Position numbers and translations under genes: made by a program. Of a stretch of DNA of 64,000 bases, positions 2,787 through 17,608 are shown piece by piece. Numbering within the stretch: position 1 is the first letter of the stretch; every line of letters starts with the position of its first letter. Below the pieces are notes generated by a model, which was given only the letters and a program-made list of their open reading frames with translations, was not told where the DNA came from and did not search any database. The DNA comes from Candidatus Woesearchaeota archaeon (GTDB lineage Archaea; Nanobdellota; Nanobdellia; Woesearchaeales; JACJVV01). Location of the stretch: positions 78,936 to 142,935 of the forward strand of contig JBLKOM010000005.1 in the NCBI GenBank assembly GCA_047602755.1, written 5' to 3'.

Positions 2787-4333
2787 AGTATACTTTCTCC
2801 ACTCATTTCTTTTGGTTTTTCTACATTTAATAATTTTAAAACAGTTGGTGCAATATCTTGTAAACCTTTATTTTCTGGTAATATTATTTTATCTTTTTGC
2901 AAATGGGGATTATTACTTACAATTAAAAGATGAACTGGATTGATTGTATGTGATGTTTTGTATTTTCCTTCCATTTCTTCACAATTTCCATGATCTGCAA
3001 ATACTAATGCAATTCCATCTTTTTCAAGAATTTTTTCGCATGATTTTTTCACACAATCATCAACAGCTTCACAAGCTTTAACTACAGCTTCCCATACGCC
3101 AGTGTGACCAACCATATCTCCGTTAACAAAATTAACTATGATTACGTCGTATATTTCTTTATCTATTGCTTCACATAATTTATCGCATACTTCATAGACA
3201 CTCATTTCTGGTTTTAAGTCATATGTTGCAACTTTAGGACTATTGACTAGTATTCTATCTTCATTTTTCTTTGGTTCTTCAACTTGTCCATTAAAGAAAA
3301 AGGTAACATGTGCATATTTTTCTGTCTCAGAAATTCTTAATTGTTTTAATTCGTTATCTGCAATAACATCTCCTAATAAATTTGATAATGATTGTGGTCT
3401 AAAAGCAATACTAGCACGTGGATTCATGGGATTATAATAATCAGTCATTGCAACAAATTTTACATTTAGTGGTGTTCTATTCCATCCTTCAAATTCATCT
3501 TCAATTATTGCTTTTGTTAGTTGTCTTGTTCGATCTGTTCGGAAATTATAAAATATGATCCCATCATTTTCCTTTATTCCATTATACCACTTCGCTTTTT
3601 GTGGTATTATAAATTCATCTGTTTCATTGTTTTTATAGCTATTTTCAAGTGCTTTAATTGGGTCATCAAAAATAAGTTCTGTTTCTCCATTAACTATAGT
3701 ATCATAAGCTTTTTTTGTTCTTTCCCATCTTTTATCGCGGTCCATAGCATAATATCTACCTGAGATAGTGGCAATCTTACCTATTCCTAATTTGGATATT
3801 TTGTCTAATAATGTTTTTGTATGTATTACTGTGTCATTAATTTCACTATCACGTCCATCAGAAAAAATATGTATAATTACATTTTTATGTTCTTTTTGCT
3901 TGCATAAATCTAATATTGCCATTAAATGATCTAGATGTGCATGAACTCCTGCAATTTGTAATAGTCCCATTAAATGAAGTGTTTTATTATTTTTTTTACA
4001 ATCTTCAATTACATTAACTAATGCAGGATTTTTGAAAAATGAACCAGATTCAATTTCTTTATTTATACGAACCATAGCTTGATAGATAATACGTCCAGAG
4101 CCAATAGTCATATGTCCTACTTCAGAATTACCCATATATCCCTCTGGTAATCCAACTGCTTCACCTGACGCATTAATTAGTACTTTTGGATATTTATCCA
4201 TTATATAATCAGTATAAGGTGTGTTTGCTTTTATAGGACCATTTGCTTCAGCTTGTTCTCTGAAACCCCATCCATCCCGTATCATTACTACTATAGGCCT
4301 ATGAATATTTTTATTATTGTTGTTTTCTAGCAT
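2783..4333 (-). CDS. gpmI: 2,3-bisphosphoglycerate-independent phosphoglycerate mutase (bacterial-type iPGM)
   Basis: The N-terminus PIVVMIRDGWG and the SEVGHMTIGSGR metal/Ser motif, together with a length of about 516 aa, are typical of GpmI. Confidence 0.9.
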   Translation of the reverse strand: MLENNNNKNIHRPIVVMIRDGWGFREQAEANGPIKANTPYTDYIMDKYPKVLINASGEAVGLPEGYMGNSEVGHMTIGSGRIIYQAMVRINKEIESGSFFKNPALVNVIEDCKKNNKTLHLMGLLQIAGVHAHLDHLMAILDLCKQKEHKNVIIHIFSDGRDSEINDTVIHTKTLLDKISKLGIGKIATISGRYYAMDRDKRWERTKKAYDTIVNGETELIFDDPIKALENSYKNNETDEFIIPQKAKWYNGIKENDGIIFYNFRTDRTRQLTKAIIEDEFEGWNRTPLNVKFVAMTDYYNPMNPRASIAFRPQSLSNLLGDVIADNELKQLRISETEKYAHVTFFFNGQVEEPKKNEDRILVNSPKVATYDLKPEMSVYEVCDKLCEAIDKEIYDVIIVNFVNGDMVGHTGVWEAVVKACEAVDDCVKKSCEKILEKDGIALVFADHGNCEEMEGKYKTSHTINPVHLLIVSNNPHLQKDKIILPENKGLQDIAPTVLKLLNVEKPKEMSGESIL

Positions 4334-11197: not shown

Positions 11198-12265
11198 TTA
11201 ACATTCTGCGCAAAAACTGTTAATAGTCATTTGTTGATCAGCTTCAAATATTAAATTACTAACCTTAATACCTAGTAATCTAACTTTAGTTTCTTCGTTT
11301 GTACACTTTAAACTATTTAACAAATATTGAATTTTGTTTTTGATAATCTCTTTGGATGTCATTGGAATTTTTAATGATATATCACGAGATATTGTGTTAA
11401 AATCTGAAAATCTAACTTTTAGTGAAACTGTTTTAAAACTATATTTATCCATATCAAGTTCATTTATTAATTCAGTAATATAATTATCACAGTTTGTTAA
11501 AAATATATCTGTGTCAAATGTCATCTCTTTGCTTATTGATTTTCTTGGACCATATTCTTCATTAACTTTGCTTTTGTCATTACCTTTTGCTAATTCTTGT
11601 AGTCCAATTATCCAAGTACCAAAATTATCAATTAATTTGAAAGTATTATATTTAGCTAGGTTGTCTATTGTAAGGATATTTAGTTTTTTAAGTTTTTCAA
11701 ATGTTTTTTTCCCAATTCCTGAAATTTTAGTTACTTCTAGTGGTGCTAAAAAGCTCTTCATATCATTAACAACAGTTATTCCATATGGTTTTTTGAAGTC
11801 TGAAGCAATTTTAGCTACATATCTAGATTCAGAAACACCGATGGAACATTTTAATTTTGTTGTATTATATATATGATCTTGGATATATTTTGCAGCATCT
11901 TCAATATTAGGAAATCTTTTTGCAAATGCAGTAATATCTAGATAAGCCTCATCAATAGAAACTTGCTCAATAAATGTTGCAAACTTTTTTAATTCAAACA
12001 TTACATTAGAAGATTCATTTTTATATAATATGAAGTTAGGCTTTAGATATGTTCCGTTAGGGCAAAGTTTTATGGCTTTGCTAATGGGTAATGCACTTTT
12101 AAGGCCATATTTTCTTGCTTCATAATTTGCTGTGCATAAAACACCCCTATTTGATGAAGGTAGTGCACCTATTGCAACAGGTTTTCCAACTAAACTTGGA
12201 TCATATTTTTCTTCACATGCTGCAAAAAAACAATCCATATCAATATGAGCAATTATTTGTTTCAT
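11198..12265 (-). CDS. dinB: Y-family DNA polymerase IV (Dpo4/Dbh/DinB)
   Basis: N-terminal HIDMDCFFAACEE, followed by the SIDEAYLDIT and GIGKKT motifs typical of DinB/Dpo4. Confidence 0.9.
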   Translation of the reverse strand: MKQIIAHIDMDCFFAACEEKYDPSLVGKPVAIGALPSSNRGVLCTANYEARKYGLKSALPISKAIKLCPNGTYLKPNFILYKNESSNVMFELKKFATFIEQVSIDEAYLDITAFAKRFPNIEDAAKYIQDHIYNTTKLKCSIGVSESRYVAKIASDFKKPYGITVVNDMKSFLAPLEVTKISGIGKKTFEKLKKLNILTIDNLAKYNTFKLIDNFGTWIIGLQELAKGNDKSKVNEEYGPRKSISKEMTFDTDIFLTNCDNYITELINELDMDKYSFKTVSLKVRFSDFNTISRDISLKIPMTSKEIIKNKIQYLLNSLKCTNEETKVRLLGIKVSNLIFEADQQMTINSFCAEC

Positions 12266-12384
12266 AAATAATTAAGAATAGCTTTAGTATATAAACAAAT
12301 CTGGAGTCAATGTCCATTGCTAATGGGGAAATATAGCTAGAATGTATTATTCAGTTAGAATCAATTTTATAGTTTAAACAATTT

Positions 12385-12471
12385 GTTAATAAAAAAAAGG
12401 GTTGGCAGTCCCTAAGAACTGCCCCCCAGATGATGGATGAAACCTCTCTTTTTAGAGAGAGGAGCATGAAT
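12385..12471 (+). repeat. Copy 1 of a conserved ~87-nt non-coding element (candidate small structured RNA), in the dinB/12701 divergent intergenic region
   Basis: About 85% identical to 15434-15520. Hairpins GGCAGT-loop-ACTGCC and CCTCTCT-loop-AGAGAGG flank the invariant CCCAGATGATGGATGAAACCTCTC core. Confidence 0.6.
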
Positions 12472-12700
12472 TTTTCTGTTTATGATTAATGATATATATT
12501 TTTTATAATTTTTTACCAATATATGTACTTTAATATATATCTTATTTGGCTAATAGAAGCTATATAATACAGAATTGACCCCCATCAACCAAGGTATAGT
12601 AATTGTCTCTTATATATAAATTTAATGGTAGTCAGATAAATGTGTATCATATGTTGTTCTATCTACTACAACTGAAGTTTAAATATTATGGAATAAGTTA

Positions 12701-13732
12701 TTGATAATGATTAGAATGAAGGCTCTGGAAAAAGAAGAAAATAAGCTAAAAGGCCTAGATTACTTGCTTTTAGTTCAGCATGGAGCTTTTTTATATTCTA
12801 CTGGCAAATATGTAGTGTTACCCTCTATTAGTTTTGGTCAGGAAGTAGATAATATAAGCTATAATTTGCACCAAGGTATTGAGAATGTGATGAATGTTGT
12901 TCAAAATATTCAGGAAACTGTTCAAAAACTAGCATTAAAAAATGGTGCGGAGATTCGGGCAGGTAAAAGAATGCTTGAAGATATAGCATTAAAAATGGAA
13001 TATGATATTAATAATGAGATGCAATCTAATCCTAATGAGGTATTAATTCATCAGTTAGAAGCCTTAAATTTATACCGAATGGAACTGAATAATTATTTTA
13101 ATATGTCTTCAAAGTCTTTACAAGATTTATATCATAATATTAATCAAAATACAATTAGTATTGCAAATGTAGGAGATTATATTAGGCCTGAATCTGGAAT
13201 TGTTAATTATTTGTTAAATATTAGAGAAAATTTAAGTAAGGAGCTTGGAGCACCTTCTGGAGAATTACATAAGACAAATCAAATTGATCTTGAGCAAGAA
13301 TATTCTAATATTTTTGGTTTAATATCGGATATCCAAAGAGCATTAACACAAGTGTCAAATATTTATCTTGCAAGTAATCAGGATTATAATGCAAGGCAAG
13401 ATTGGATTAATAATGGTAGATCTTTAATCGAAAAATATCAAACTCTTCAACAATCAAATCAACTTCTTCATGAAATGGATCTTGTTTCTGATAATTTTAG
13501 AGAACAATTAAGTGAGATTGTTCATACAAAAGTTGATACTATTGATTATATGAAAACTAAAGGATATGATGTTTCTGAACCAATGTCATTTATGGTATAT
13601 TTTATTCCTGCGATTGCAGCAGCAGGAAGTTTGATTTTGTATGATAAGATTGTAAAGATTGAAAGAAGAATATTAAATCAAATGTCTACCATTGTGAAAT
13701 CGGTAAGAGGAGTAGTGAATAAAAATGGATAA
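12701..13732 (+). CDS. Hypothetical coiled-coil protein with a C-terminal TM helix
   Basis: 343 aa, Q/N/E-rich helical, hydrophobic segment near the C-terminus. Start overlaps the next gene, suggesting an operon. Confidence 0.45.
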   Translation: MIMIRMKALEKEENKLKGLDYLLLVQHGAFLYSTGKYVVLPSISFGQEVDNISYNLHQGIENVMNVVQNIQETVQKLALKNGAEIRAGKRMLEDIALKMEYDINNEMQSNPNEVLIHQLEALNLYRMELNNYFNMSSKSLQDLYHNINQNTISIANVGDYIRPESGIVNYLLNIRENLSKELGAPSGELHKTNQIDLEQEYSNIFGLISDIQRALTQVSNIYLASNQDYNARQDWINNGRSLIEKYQTLQQSNQLLHEMDLVSDNFREQLSEIVHTKVDTIDYMKTKGYDVSEPMSFMVYFIPAIAAAGSLILYDKIVKIERRILNQMSTIVKSVRGVVNKNG

Positions 13733-14884: not shown

Positions 14885-15385
14885 ATGAATAACTTAATTA
14901 TTATTTTTATGACTCTATTAAATAGATTTAATAAAATAATATTATATACTGCTATATTTGGATTAGGATATAGTACTTGTTATGCGGATGGATTTTTGGA
15001 AAGAATAAAAAATAAAGTAAATAATTTTACAATTGCAGCTTCTGAATTGGGTGAGGAAATTAAACCTAAATCTATTGATCATCTTTTAATAATACGTTCT
15101 TCGATATCTGAGTTATTAGGTTCTGAATCAGGAGATAAACATAAATTATATTCTTCTTGGAGAAGTAGAGAATATCAGAATATCGATAATTTGATTAAAT
15201 TCTATGAAACTATTATTAATGATGCAAATATTTCTTCTAATAGTTATTCTAAGCTTGACAATTCTTATAATCTATACGAATTAAATACTCTTTTGAATAA
15301 ACTTGTAACACTTAATGTTGATTGTGGTGAATTTAAAGAAAAGATGATTTCTATTGAACTAAAACGTCAAAGATATATTCCATGA
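14885..15385 (+). CDS. Secreted or lipid-anchored hypothetical protein
   Basis: N-terminal signal-like hydrophobic segment ending ...STCYADG. Confidence 0.45.
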   Translation: MNNLIIIFMTLLNRFNKIILYTAIFGLGYSTCYADGFLERIKNKVNNFTIAASELGEEIKPKSIDHLLIIRSSISELLGSESGDKHKLYSSWRSREYQNIDNLIKFYETIINDANISSNSYSKLDNSYNLYELNTLLNKLVTLNVDCGEFKEKMISIELKRQRYIP

Positions 15386-15433
15386 TATTTTTACAATTAG
15401 ATTTTATTTTAATAATCTATAGAATAAAATTAA

Positions 15434-15520
15434 GTTAATAAAAAAAGAGGAGGACAGTTCCGAAGAACTGCCCTACCCAGATGATGGATGAAACCTCTCC
15501 TTAGAGAGAGGATCATAAAT
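15434..15520 (+). repeat. Copy 2 of the conserved ~87-nt non-coding element
   Basis: GTTAATAAAAAAAGAGGAGGACAGTTCCGAAGAACTGCCCTACCCAGATGATGGATGAAACCTCTCCTTAGAGAGAGGATCATAAAT, with the same two hairpins and core as copy 1. Confidence 0.6.
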
Positions 15521-15800
15521 CCCACAGTAAGCTGTGGGTGCCAAATTCGTTGTGATTGATTTTATCAGCTGCTAGTTAGAACTCGGCGATAGCCAGTTTT
15601 TTTGTGTGCCGCTTTCTTTTCGCGATGCTTCATATTAAAACCTTTTGTGATGCGAGCTTGTATAAGCTCAAGCATTATAAAACAAAAGTGCCCGAGGGGT
15701 ATGAGGGGTGTTTGCAAAGAACTTGTGGGCACTTTGTTTCATTTTACATAGGTTAAAGGCTGTAACCAATGATTACAGACTTTGAATGTGATTTTGTAAT
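15521..15800. ncRNA. GC-enriched, hairpin-dense non-coding island (candidate structured RNA of unknown class) in a convergent intergenic region
   Basis: No ORF of at least 60 aa. Contains the perfect hairpin CCCACAG-TAAG-CTGTGGG, the 9-bp stem AAAGTGCCC...GGGCACTTT enclosing a duplicated GAGGGGT, and the palindromes GAGCTTGTATAAGCTC and CTGTAA...TTACAG. GC is clearly above the local background. Confidence 0.35.
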
Positions 15801-15819
15801 GAAAAATTTTGATTAAAAA

Positions 15820-16224
15820 TCATTCATATGAGTGAGCTGGTTTTCGTAATTCTTCTTTCCACATTAAACCAACTTTGAGCATATCATTGTAAAATTTATC
15901 ACTTAAACGGTATGTTTTTTTGTAAAGATCATATTCAACTATACCCATACTTTTAAGAGGGGTTAGTATTCTATCGTAAAATTGTCTTTTATTATATGAT
16001 AGTTTTACTTTTTTTCCTTTAAATTTAGGGTCATCAATCATTGTAACAAATTGACCTTCATGTAATTGGGTCGCAAATAGACTCATTTCAGTTTTATTTA
16101 CTTCATTTTCGTGATCTTTCATAAATTCAACTAATGCTTTTGCAACTATTTCTTGTTGCTTGGTTGCAAATATGACTTCATAAATGTCTTTCGGGAAATT
16201 AAATCTGTCATAAAGTATAACCAT
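15820..16224 (-). CDS. Hypothetical protein, possibly a winged-helix DNA-binding protein
   Basis: 134 aa. The C-terminal region is helix-turn-wing-like. Weak. Confidence 0.4.
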   Translation of the reverse strand: MVILYDRFNFPKDIYEVIFATKQQEIVAKALVEFMKDHENEVNKTEMSLFATQLHEGQFVTMIDDPKFKGKKVKLSYNKRQFYDRILTPLKSMGIVEYDLYKKTYRLSDKFYNDMLKVGLMWKEELRKPAHSYE

Positions 16225-16390
16225 TTTATGTCATTTGTCTATATTAGAATGCTTAATACATGTACTGATATATAAATATTTCTATTATTAGCTAATTATA
16301 CCAACTAGTATACATAATAGTATATTATATTTTGTGGATTTTTTTCAACAAATTTATAAACTTGCTATTTGTTATATATTTAGGTGATTT

Positions 16391-17608
16391 TTGATGTATG
16401 ATAATATTAAATCAATTGATAAATTTGATTTCTCAAATAAACGTGTAATTATGCGCTGTGATTTTAATGTACCTATTGATAAAAAGACAGGCGAAATAAC
16501 TTCTTGTAAGCGTATTGAAGCTGCTTTACCCTCAATTAAAAAAATATTAGAGAGTGCAGATCAATTAATTTTAATGTCACATTTGGGTAAACCTAAAAAA
16601 TTAGTAGAAAAAAATCAGGATTTTAAGAGTCAATTGTCATTATCAATTGTAGCAAATAAACTTAAATCTTTACTTGGGCAAGAAATAGTTTTAGCAAAAG
16701 ATTATCTTGAAAATGAATTACCAAAGGGGAAAATTATTCTTTTAGAAAATGTTAGATTTCATTATGATCTTGAGCAATCAAAATCAGATGAACAACGAGA
16801 TATATTTGCAAAACGTCTTTCATCTTTTGGAGATATTTTCATTAATGATGCATTTGGAACGTGTCATCGTAAAGAAGCTTCAGTTTATGATATTGTGAAA
16901 TATTTACCGTCAGGTATTGGATATTTAGTTGCTAAAGAAATTAAAATGCTTTCAGCAATACTTGAAAATCCAGAAAAACCTTATTATGCAATTTTGGGTG
17001 GTGCTAAAGTTGAAGATAAAATAAAAGTTATTGAATCTTTGGCTACTAAAGTTGATGGTATTATAATTATAGGTGCAATGGAATATTCATTTATGAAAGC
17101 GATGGGTAAAAATATTGGTAATTCATTGTGCGAAGGGTTAGATACAGCAAAAAAATCATTAGCATCAAATTATAAAGATAAATTAATTTTTGCAAAAGAT
17201 ACTGTTGTAGCAAAAAGAGAAGATGATAATTTTGTTGACATAAAAACAGTTGTTGCTGGTGCAATACCGGATGACTATATTGGATTTGATATTGGTGATG
17301 AAACTATAAAATTAATTGAAGAAAAAGTTTCAAATGCTCAAACAATATTCTGGAATGGACCAGCCGGAATGTTTGAGGTTAATCCTTTTGAGAAAGGCAC
17401 ATATGCAATTGCAAAGATTATTGCTAACTCCAATTGTAAATGTGTTGTTGGTGGTGGAGATAGTGTTACTGCTATTGAAAAATCAGGGATTCCAGAGGAA
17501 AAATTCACTCATCTTTCAACAGGTGGTGGAGCTTCAATGGAATTTATTGAAAGCAATGGTAGACTACCTGCTTTAGACATTCAAGAGGAAAAGAATGCAG
17601 GAAATTGA
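16391..17608 (+). CDS. pgk: Phosphoglycerate kinase
   Basis: LMSHLGKPK, GGGDSV and STGGGASMEF motifs. 405 aa. Confidence 0.95.
   Translation: MMYDNIKSIDKFDFSNKRVIMRCDFNVPIDKKTGEITSCKRIEAALPSIKKILESADQLILMSHLGKPKKLVEKNQDFKSQLSLSIVANKLKSLLGQEIVLAKDYLENELPKGKIILLENVRFHYDLEQSKSDEQRDIFAKRLSSFGDIFINDAFGTCHRKEASVYDIVKYLPSGIGYLVAKEIKMLSAILENPEKPYYAILGGAKVEDKIKVIESLATKVDGIIIIGAMEYSFMKAMGKNIGNSLCEGLDTAKKSLASNYKDKLIFAKDTVVAKREDDNFVDIKTVVAGAIPDDYIGFDIGDETIKLIEEKVSNAQTIFWNGPAGMFEVNPFEKGTYAIAKIIANSNCKCVVGGGDSVTAIEKSGIPEEKFTHLSTGGGASMEFIESNGRLPALDIQEEKNAGN

Follow-up and report, generated by a model that had tools for sequence, protein, structure and literature searches.

In bacteria, base-pairing small RNAs can be linked to a regulator gene, as oxyS is next to oxyR and gcvB next to gcvA. 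The RsaE/RoxS small RNAs of Firmicutes carry C-rich unpaired motifs that pair with G-rich Shine-Dalgarno sites, and CsrB and RsmZ are sponge RNAs with repeated loop motifs (GGA). A literature search found no paper on non-coding RNAs of Woesearchaeota. Here we analyze a GC-rich island in a 64,000-nt stretch of a Candidatus Woesearchaeota archaeon genome (contig JBLKOM010000005.1, positions 78,936 to 142,935; hereafter the window), which lies directly downstream of a gene for a 134-aa winged-helix-like protein. As judged from comparative sequence evidence, the island is a cluster of structured non-coding RNA (ncRNA) elements on the minus strand, presumably transcribed, among them a hairpin with a large C-rich loop (the C-loop hairpin) and a two-hairpin unit ending in a U-run (the 3' module).

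A sequence-only reading had placed a GC-enriched, non-coding, hairpin-dense island at 15521-15800, in a genome otherwise below about 30% GC. Composition bears this out: the stretch has 40.0% GC against 27.1% for the whole window, and the island is the top non-overlapping GC peak of the window at 100, 150, 200, 280 and 330 nt (49, 47, 44 and 42.7% for windows of 100, 150, 280 and 330 nt, respectively). The second-highest 330-nt window reaches 36.7%, with a mean of 27.1% and a standard deviation of 3.5%. The left edge had been set about 80 nt too far to the right, and so excluded the best-conserved module. The GC peak windows span ~15447-15778, the RNA features begin at 15439 counting the terminal U-run, and the true extent of the island is 15439-15800. 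All four stems quoted in that reading are present (H5, the C-loop core stem, H3 and H1 in Table 1). A 380-nt stretch folds better than all of its dinucleotide shuffles (z = -5.6 for the minus and -4.0 for the plus strand), and a consensus scan of 15200-16500 finds 4 terminator-like hairpins where 0.3 +/- 0.5 are expected. Neither strand of the island has an open reading frame (ORF) of at least 60 aa, as had been stated. The longest, 55 aa at 15565-15732 on the minus strand, has no protein homologue, and indels among relatives are not multiples of three, which argues against a coding remnant.

Counterparts of the C-loop hairpin adjoin the orthologous gene across Woesearchaeota. We sampled 80 genome loci around homologues of the 134-aa gene (L numbers below) and scanned them with a regular expression combined with a stem search. 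The family is defined by a GC-rich closing stem of 8-12 bp and a loop of 30-45 nt, in which UUCU lies toward the 5' end and a C-rich block toward the 3' end. Such a hairpin lies on the gene's strand in 50 of the 80 loci, mostly 4-60 nt past the stop codon; in 7 further loci it lies 5' of the gene on the opposite strand. The stem of the family design is GGCyCCC/GGGrGCC. The 25-nt loop is almost unchanged throughout: it reads (A/U)UUCUUCUCAAACCACCCCCACGUAUAAA, near-invariant, in the largest clade, and UUCUUCUCAAACCACCCCCACGUAU is invariant even at would-be codon wobble positions. We then built a covariance model (R2) on real sequences. At E <= 1e-3 it matches 61 hairpins, in 51 of the 80 genome loci, and all of them lie at the expected place and on the expected strand. 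R2 is clean, whereas the N-padded bootstrap model that it replaced (R1) was weak and gave scores on the reverse strand as well; when aligned with MAFFT, the hairpins yielded no consensus structure, with G and C runs out of register. In the R2 alignment 98.1% of cells are paired, a percentage biased upward since the alignments were selected for or fitted to the stem. Two measures free of this bias agree: 7 of the 8 pairs have changed on both sides, and G.U or U.G pairs outnumber A.C or C.A pairs 13 to 2, an asymmetry that is strand-specific. None of 500 shuffles reaches the observed values, and slid registers collapse.

These changes bear on whether the island acts as RNA at all. It could instead be a DNA-level element (protein-binding inverted repeats, an attachment or recombination site, a replication repeat), a coding remnant or a micro-ORF. 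Inverted repeats such as these stems are, in principle, possible binding sites for dimeric proteins, the 25-nt core shared without change by host and virus-like contigs (see below) is reminiscent of attachment sites, and the canonical loop can be read as ...FFSNHPHV-stop. Against this, stem sequences have been swapped wholesale with pairing kept, and the excess of G.U over A.C is confined to one strand. For the micro-ORF in particular, wobble positions are invariant, no start or stop codon is conserved, and no start codon lies near the Shine-Dalgarno-like box found at some loci. Taken with the lack of a protein homologue and the indel lengths given above, these results make an explanation other than RNA highly improbable.

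The linkage to the winged-helix gene also holds in the reverse direction. A metagenome search with nothing but the 25-nt loop brought up 35 loci. In 25 of them the winged-helix gene lies immediately 5' of the hairpin, on its strand; in 5 the sequence 5' of the hairpin is too short to judge, and 5 (four distinct sequences) carry the hairpin without the gene. L088 (identical to L103), L097 and L098 combine the identical loop with wholly different, fully compensated stems, for example CACGAGUAAC/GUUACUCGUG and GGGUACCAG/CUGGUACCC. The unlinked hairpins lie at 1807-1866 on the minus strand of L097 and at 853-907 of L098. Upstream of the hairpin, the L097 contig carries a large gene with a Phage_Mu_F domain (possibly a portal fusion), and a putative Woesearchaeota virus may encode its own version of the hairpin. 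A scan of IMG/VR viral contigs for the canonical loop gave 0 exact matches.

The C-loop hairpin of the window lies 85 nt 3' of the stop codon of the winged-helix gene, on that gene's strand. Its loop follows the family design, GUUCUUU and then ACACCCCUCAUACCCCUC, inside the GC-rich stem AAAGUGCCC/GGGCACUUU, and its C-rich block is a lineage variant with ACCCCU repeats in place of CCACCCCCAC. The closest relatives by protein identity are L001 (93%) and L081, L083/L084 and L085 (~83%). The loops of L001, L081 and L085 have GUUCUA and two to three AUACCCCUAA repeats, and their stems (GGGAGCAUC/GAUGCUUC, AAAAGUGUUUG/CAAAUGCUUUU and AAAAGUGUUUG/CAAACACUUUU, respectively) differ yet pair; among the window, L001, L081, L084 and L085 the stem changes by compensation. 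The next relative, L082 (78% protein identity), is recognised as canonical by R2 (E = 2.4e-7), and the CAUCACAA motif is common to it and the window. We consider the window hairpin a probable divergent homologue of the canonical C-loop hairpin. Against this assignment stand the scores. R2 with filters off gives the window hairpin 8.0 bits (E = 7.5), which is not significant, and the sequence profile (nhmmer) is not significant either (E = 7.5), so that the homology is argued from synteny and architecture and not from a score. The R2 score is the second-best in the window, with place, strand and register as expected, and R2 also misses the closest relatives L001 and L081 and L083-L085. A blastn search of the island against the 80 loci matched the closest relative L001 only.

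The position of the hairpin raises the possibility of a cis-acting element in the 3' untranslated region (3' UTR) of the winged-helix mRNA, which would be stabilising, terminating or autoregulatory and transcribed only with that mRNA. Such an element would suit the 50 gene-strand hairpins, the U-runs that follow the hairpin in many loci, and those genomes with two gene paralogues in which the hairpin lies by one only. It does not suit the seven divergent loci (L012, L022, L031, L052, L055, L063 and L077), where the hairpin has its own putative CGTAAcATTTATATA promoter, then a AGTATACA box that resembles the palindrome 5' of winged-helix genes. On account of this promoter and box we predict that the hairpin is an independent RNA gene and more than part of a 3' UTR. 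Nor does it suit the five loop-retrieved loci without the gene, one of them beside the phage Mu F gene. In the window, two U5 runs (15815-15819 and 15802-15806, minus strand) separate the stop codon of the winged-helix gene from the island, and the 3' module also has a free-standing copy. Oligo-U is all that archaeal termination needs, which leaves the invariant 25-nt loop unexplained. We regard the cis 3'-UTR explanation as quite unlikely.

The flanking genes are convergent, as had been described. The plus-strand ORF at 14885-15385 is followed by a T5 run at 15388-15392, 3 nt past its stop codon; since oligo-T runs follow both stop codons and oligo-U suffices for termination, both flanking mRNAs may end before the island. 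A 3'-UTR structure common to both genes, which the sequence-only reading had raised, is not supported for the plus-strand gene, given this T5 run and a comparative signal that is all on the minus strand.

The best-conserved part of the island is the 3' module, which consists of hairpin A, the 15-nt invariant single strand, hairpin B and a U7 run; the consensus scan calls hairpin B and U7 a minus-strand terminator. An nhmmer profile finds the module in L001, L081, L083 and L084 (E 3e-12 to 7e-26), and the window's copy at 15.4 kb, itself a training sequence, matches its own profile at E = 8.5e-25. The RNAalifold consensus has 21 pairs, and two G.U pairs are kept in 4 of the 5 sequences and are G-C in the paralogue. 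The module is 86-87% identical to its relatives, against 54-58% at third codon positions of the adjacent gene, compared only within codons for identical amino acids. This difference indicates selection on the nucleotide sequence of the module itself.

The window holds a second, paralogous copy of the 3' module near 12.4 kb. It is 81% identical to the 15.4-kb copy and likewise contains hairpins A and B, the unchanged invariant UUUCAUCCAUCAUCU and a U-run, here U8. This copy stands alone in the intergenic region between a DinB-like gene and an ORF at 12701-13732. A scan of JGI metagenome contigs for the invariant 22-mer of the module gave 0 matches. In L001, the first half of the module (CGUUCACGAUCCUCUCUCAGCAGAGAGGUACGAGA, hairpin, CUGGACCUCUUC) occurs three times in tandem at 3830-4085 with ~85-nt spacing. 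A spurious 103-aa ORF crosses these repeats, and a second C-loop hairpin follows them at 4107-4172.

The evidence points to the minus strand as the functional strand of the island. It is on this strand alone that hairpin B has a cUUCGg loop with U7 after it. H1, too, pairs U with G here, against C.A on the plus strand, relatives conserve the G.U pairs of the 3' module, and the comparative signal is all co-oriented with the winged-helix gene. A single unclassified candidate RNA had been proposed from sequence alone. The structured RNA is supported, with modules conserved in relatives (the closest of them have the 3' module as well as three of the four quoted stems, with compensatory changes); the single RNA is not, as the island probably consists of several modules. 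It may hold at least two transcription units, because the C-loop hairpin of L083 and L085 is followed by U8 or U7.

The 134-aa protein has 3,698 homologues at >=66% identity, from Woesearchaeota or Nanoarchaeota, all of them unnamed or 'hypothetical'. It has no match in Pfam, NCBIfam or PDB sequences. An AlphaFold 2 (AF2) model reaches a predicted local distance difference test score (pLDDT) of 71, and its best PDB matches by Foldseek are the winged-helix domains of LmrR, MarR, SqrR, Orc/Cdc6 and cullin, all at E >= 0.06; the predicted fold thus weakly resembles winged-helix domains. No RNA-binding domain was detected in the Pfam, NCBIfam and Foldseek searches. A palindrome, cTATACTAGTAT, precedes a transcription factor B recognition element (BRE)/TATA sequence, CGAAAcATTTATATA, 5' of the orthologous gene in ~25 loci, and this conserved arrangement suggests that the protein is an autoregulated DNA-binding factor. 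The palindrome could be the operator both for autoregulation and for control of the RNA. In loci L002-L060 the palindrome and BRE/TATA sit ~30-90 nt 5' of the winged-helix gene, and in the window at 16269-16325. The palindrome is not clearly enriched in the 64-kb window (16 matches against 9.8 +/- 3.2 expected). Several genomes encode two winged-helix paralogues (L025 and L058 on the AR15 chromosome, L043 and L016, L056 and L065, L040 and L028), and the hairpin RNA follows only one of each pair.

How such RNAs might act is a matter of weighing. We tentatively favor the reading that they are trans-acting regulatory RNAs tied to the neighboring winged-helix regulator. A purine-rich partner would then recognise the exposed, invariant C/U-rich segments, most likely through base pairing of these segments with other RNAs. 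The adjacent winged-helix protein would bind DNA and regulate both its own gene and the RNA gene, and so link expression of the RNA to itself. We favor this reading because the 3' module has the layout of a classical base-pairing small RNA, because the hairpin shows invariant unpaired sequence between covarying stems, and because the linkage of RNA and regulator persists in both orientations with related promoter motifs. Several observations weigh against it. ACCCCUC pairs with Shine-Dalgarno sequences of the AGGTG/GGTGA type over only ~4 nt. A search for targets gave no good complement to the invariant 15-mer in the rest of the 64-kb window, and none to the canonical loop core in 59 loci. An invariant loop of 25 nt exceeds a typical base-pairing seed and fits a protein- or ribosome-binding site at least as well; a hairpin 4-60 nt past the stop codon in most loci also fits the cis element discussed above.

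The loop may thus be read by a protein, the RNA being a decoy, a sponge or a scaffold of a ribonucleoprotein (RNP) that titrates or guides a host protein. The site would be the invariant loop or, in the clade of the window, the two to three AUACCCCUAA/ACCCCUC units, and the partner could be the winged-helix protein or a translation or ribosome-biogenesis factor. Loop invariance over 25 nt while the stems covary, the repetition of a C-rich unit inside one loop in the window's clade and the linkage to one protein gene in both orientations are all consistent with this, as is the contig with the phage Mu F gene, where the loop is retained on a stem peculiar to that contig, just what recognition by a host factor would predict. 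On the other hand, the winged-helix protein looks like a DNA binder, with a conserved palindrome at its own promoter and no detectable RNA-binding domain, no candidate C-rich-binding protein was identified, and the 3' module, with its hairpin, single strand and terminator hairpin, resembles a base-pairing small RNA. We consider a protein-binding role rather unlikely, though the likeliest of the alternatives. In a more speculative form, to which we assign a low probability, the hairpin and the orphan winged-helix protein would make up a lineage-wide regulatory or RNP module of Woesearchaeota without a described counterpart, in which the RNA is the effector of a gene that ranks among the most conserved uncharacterised ones in these archaea with reduced genomes, and its loop is read by a core host machine such as the ribosome or a ribosome-biogenesis factor. 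This would explain an rRNA-like invariance of the loop and a putative virus that carries its own version.

Before returning to trans-acting RNAs, sequences downstream of the hairpin have to be considered. In many majority-clade loci a second hairpin lies 20-60 nt farther on and partly sequesters a GAGGUGAU Shine-Dalgarno sequence, after which comes a start codon, often that of a conserved gene whose 87-aa product starts MAHEHLVKWGK. What comes after the hairpin in the divergent group is a gene starting MDFVVQSA.... The hairpin might therefore be a cis-acting 5' leader, of the riboswitch or protein-binding type, that controls translation of the downstream gene. This is plausible in some lineages and impossible in the window, where the RNA ends in a terminator facing the 3' end of the convergent gene and nothing lies downstream to regulate. 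Moreover, the downstream gene varies between lineages or is absent, and no Rfam riboswitch matches, which makes a 5' leader very unlikely as an account of these RNAs. The trans-acting reading remains the one that we prefer.

Several groups of loci carry additional structures. The small second hairpin, CCCUUAUC...GAGGUGAUAAGGG, is found in L019, L030, L037, L051, L094, L099, L105, L110, L111, L117 and L119, where it partly sequesters the Shine-Dalgarno sequence and precedes the conserved gene; the 87-aa product has no Pfam match, and a hydrophobic stretch close to its C-terminus may be a membrane helix. A sub-clade (L025, L035, L040, L043, L044, L050 and L056) has a three-hairpin RNA within the 170-300 nt downstream of the gene. 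The first and third hairpins are of the C-loop type (ACCCCACCCC and AUACCCCUCCCC) and the middle one (CCUUAAGG...) is simple; the inner stem of the second C-loop hairpin covaries (UUCUU/AAGAA versus GAUU/AAUC), and a U-run comes last. An extra conserved structured stretch separates stop codon and hairpin in L030, L045, L049, L053, L073, L092, L094, L105 and L110. It runs through GGCGAG, a hairpin and CGAGCA to a second hairpin with a cGAAg loop, GGAUUGAAAA, and a Shine-Dalgarno-like AAAGAGGUGA box, and ~25 nt past the box it ends in CUCUUCAAUU, directly before the C-loop hairpin. This stretch has no Rfam match.

Known RNA families were searched with Rfam version 15, at gathering score and at E <= 10. 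At gathering score there is no match in the whole 64-kb window, the best in the island region having E = 0.28, and 20 loci give tRNAs only; at E <= 10, three regions (15300-15900, 12250-12800 and a relative's region) give nothing credible. Archaeal signal recognition particle (SRP) RNA (RF01857) and RNase P RNA (RF00373, RF02357), which had already been set aside from sequence motifs, are absent from these three regions even at E <= 10. ARAGORN finds no tRNA or tmRNA in the window. Box C/D guide RNAs would be marked by a terminal C box (RUGAUGA) and D box (CUGA), and H/ACA RNAs by a hairpin with an internal pocket, a K-turn and a 3' ACA. Both kinds appear only below threshold, as snoU83 reaches 21 of the required 50 bits and sR5 12 of 40; a GAUGAUGG run occurs on the plus strand, CUGA does not, and no conserved ACA or ANA follows the hairpins. 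RF00519 (suhB/mmgR), which among Rfam families the 12.4-kb copy of the 3' module resembles most, was also rejected: that copy scores 20.2 bits (E = 0.09) where gathering requires 41, and there is no match for the 15.4-kb copy. We likewise rejected an anti-Shine-Dalgarno mimic or Shine-Dalgarno sponge, as the CCUCC tail of hairpin B is paired in the stem and absent from the paralogue, and the loops complement the AGGUGA(U) consensus poorly. With no match in Rfam 15, we rate the island as a candidate new ncRNA family, or families, of a known general kind.

The remaining pieces of the island are conserved to different degrees. H5 is kept by compensatory change, as CCCACGG/CCGUGGG in L001, CCCAC/GUGGG in L081 and CCCAU/AUGGG in L084. 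The sequence of H1 is unconserved, and other hairpins occupy its position in relatives; its folding energy is -3.6 kcal/mol on the minus strand versus -0.9 on the plus strand. At the position equivalent to H3, L082 has the hairpin GCUCCUCAAUUAAUUGAGGAGC, directly before the CAUCACAA motif. Counterparts of the single-stranded motif GCAUCACAAAAGG are GAGCAUCACAAAAGGGCUC in L001, CACAUCACAACAGG in L082, CGCAUCACACA and CGCAUCAAACA in L043 and L050, and CCAAUCACAAA in divergent-group loci. Within the motif at 15582-15596, CUGGCUA(U/G)(C/U) is common to the window, L001, L081 and L084.

Table 1. Positions of the RNA island, the second copy of its 3' module and the neighboring winged-helix gene in the window.
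Feature	Position	Strand	Sequence or remark
C-loop hairpin	15679-15740	-	core stem 15685-15735; U4GU4 after
C-loop core stem	15685-15735	-	AAAGUGCCC/GGGCACUUU, 9 bp
C-loop stem, plus-strand reading	15685-15735	+	AAAGTGCCC...GGGCACTTT; encloses GAGGGGT-AT-GAGGGGT
C-loop loop, 5' part	15716-15722	-	GUUCUUU; whole loop 33 nt
C-loop loop, tandem repeat	15694-15711	-	ACACCCCUC-AU-ACCCCUC
Hairpin H1	15760-15778	-	CUGUAAUC-AUU-GGUUACAG; 8 pairs including one U.G; plus-strand form CTGTAACCAATGATTACAG, with C.A mismatch
Hairpin H3	15654-15669	-	GAGCUU-AUAC-AAGCUC; plus-strand form GAGCTTGTATAAGCTC
Conserved single-stranded motif	15641-15653	-	GCAUCACAAAAGG; recurs beside C-loop hairpin in several lineages
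Conserved motif	15582-15596	-	CUGGCUAUCGCCGAG
Hairpin H5	15521-15538	-	CCCACAG-CUUA-CUGUGGG; plus strand CCCACAG-TAAG-CTGTGGG
3' module	15439-15511	-	two hairpins, invariant single strand, U7
Hairpin A	15494-15511	-	CCUCUCU-CUAA-GGAGAGG
Invariant single strand	15479-15493	-	UUUCAUCCAUCAUCU, 15 nt
Hairpin B	15449-15478	-	GGGUAGGGCAGUUC-UUCG-GAACUGUCCUCC; cUUCGg loop
U7 run after hairpin B	15440-15446	-	
Second (paralogous) copy of 3' module	12390-12472	-	nhmmer match 12390-12469, E = 7.8e-16
AT-rich TATA-like stretch upstream of second copy	12491-12514	-	
Winged-helix-like protein gene, 134 aa	15820-16224	-	ORF; directly upstream of RNA island
Putative promoter of winged-helix gene	16269-16312	-	TATA, BRE-like and palindrome-like box
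TATA box of winged-helix gene	16269-16276	-	TTTATATA; BRE-like AGAAATA precedes
Palindrome-like box upstream of winged-helix gene	16304-16312	-	TATACTAGT

Elsewhere in the window, genes include a family-B DNA polymerase and a RIO-type kinase, which together with the names given to homologues assign the stretch to Candidatus Woesearchaeota, a DPANN archaeon. The window has zero tRNA genes and zero Rfam families. Many ORFs have a TATA-like box ~25-30 nt 5' of the start codon and no Shine-Dalgarno sequence, and many genes look leaderless; where present, the Shine-Dalgarno sequence is AGGUGA(U), and the 5-mers AGGTG and GGTGA are enriched 5' of ORFs. Many Woesearchaeota-like contigs in the sample (L001, L003, L006 and others) carry the record title 'uncultured Methanosarcinales archaeon', and one (L012) is titled 'Candidatus Binatia bacterium'; these titles are probably wrong or reflect mis-binning.

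DPANN archaea are mostly uncultivated, and the locus offers a concrete ncRNA candidate that is conserved, supported by covariation and absent from Rfam 15. Its tie to an unannotated winged-helix gene with ~3,700 close homologues gives a starting point for the function of both, and the 25-nt invariant loop and the 15-nt invariant strand can be used as metatranscriptome probes and as queries in target searches. If these are ordinary small RNAs, the gain would be better annotation of DPANN genomes. If a core machine reads the loop, or viruses exploit it, they would be a new piece of archaeal biology.

Among known systems, an intrinsic terminator fits part of the 3' module: hairpin B with U7 satisfies the consensus scan, but UUUCAUCCAUCAUCU and hairpin A, the 86-87% conservation of the module and its free-standing copy are left unaccounted for. 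The alpha-proteobacterial RF00519 (suhB/mmgR) shares with the 3' module a layout of hairpin, single strand and terminator hairpin over ~80 nt, but it comes from another phylum and domain of life and the score is below threshold, so the 3' module is not a member. CsrB and RsmZ differ in that their motif is GGA and not C-rich; here there are only 2-3 repeats and no CsrA-like protein was found, whereas a short motif repeated in exposed loops and a loop more conserved than its stem are common to both. The RsaE/RoxS RNAs are comparable in the two or three ACCCCU copies held unpaired between stable stems. Here, however, many genes seem to lack a leader, the loops complement the Shine-Dalgarno consensus AGGUGA(U) poorly, and there is no sequence or Rfam similarity between these RNAs and the island. 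The oxyS/oxyR and gcvB/gcvA pairs differ from the present locus in host and regulator, since this is an archaeon with BRE/TATA promoters and an unannotated winged-helix protein in place of a LysR-type regulator, with no known target or Hfq-like partner, and it is the promoter motifs that suggest control of the RNA by the protein. What the locus has in common with them is a short structured RNA gene beside the gene of a DNA-binding regulator, divergent or in tandem, which ends in a hairpin and a U-run and exposes a conserved single-stranded segment.

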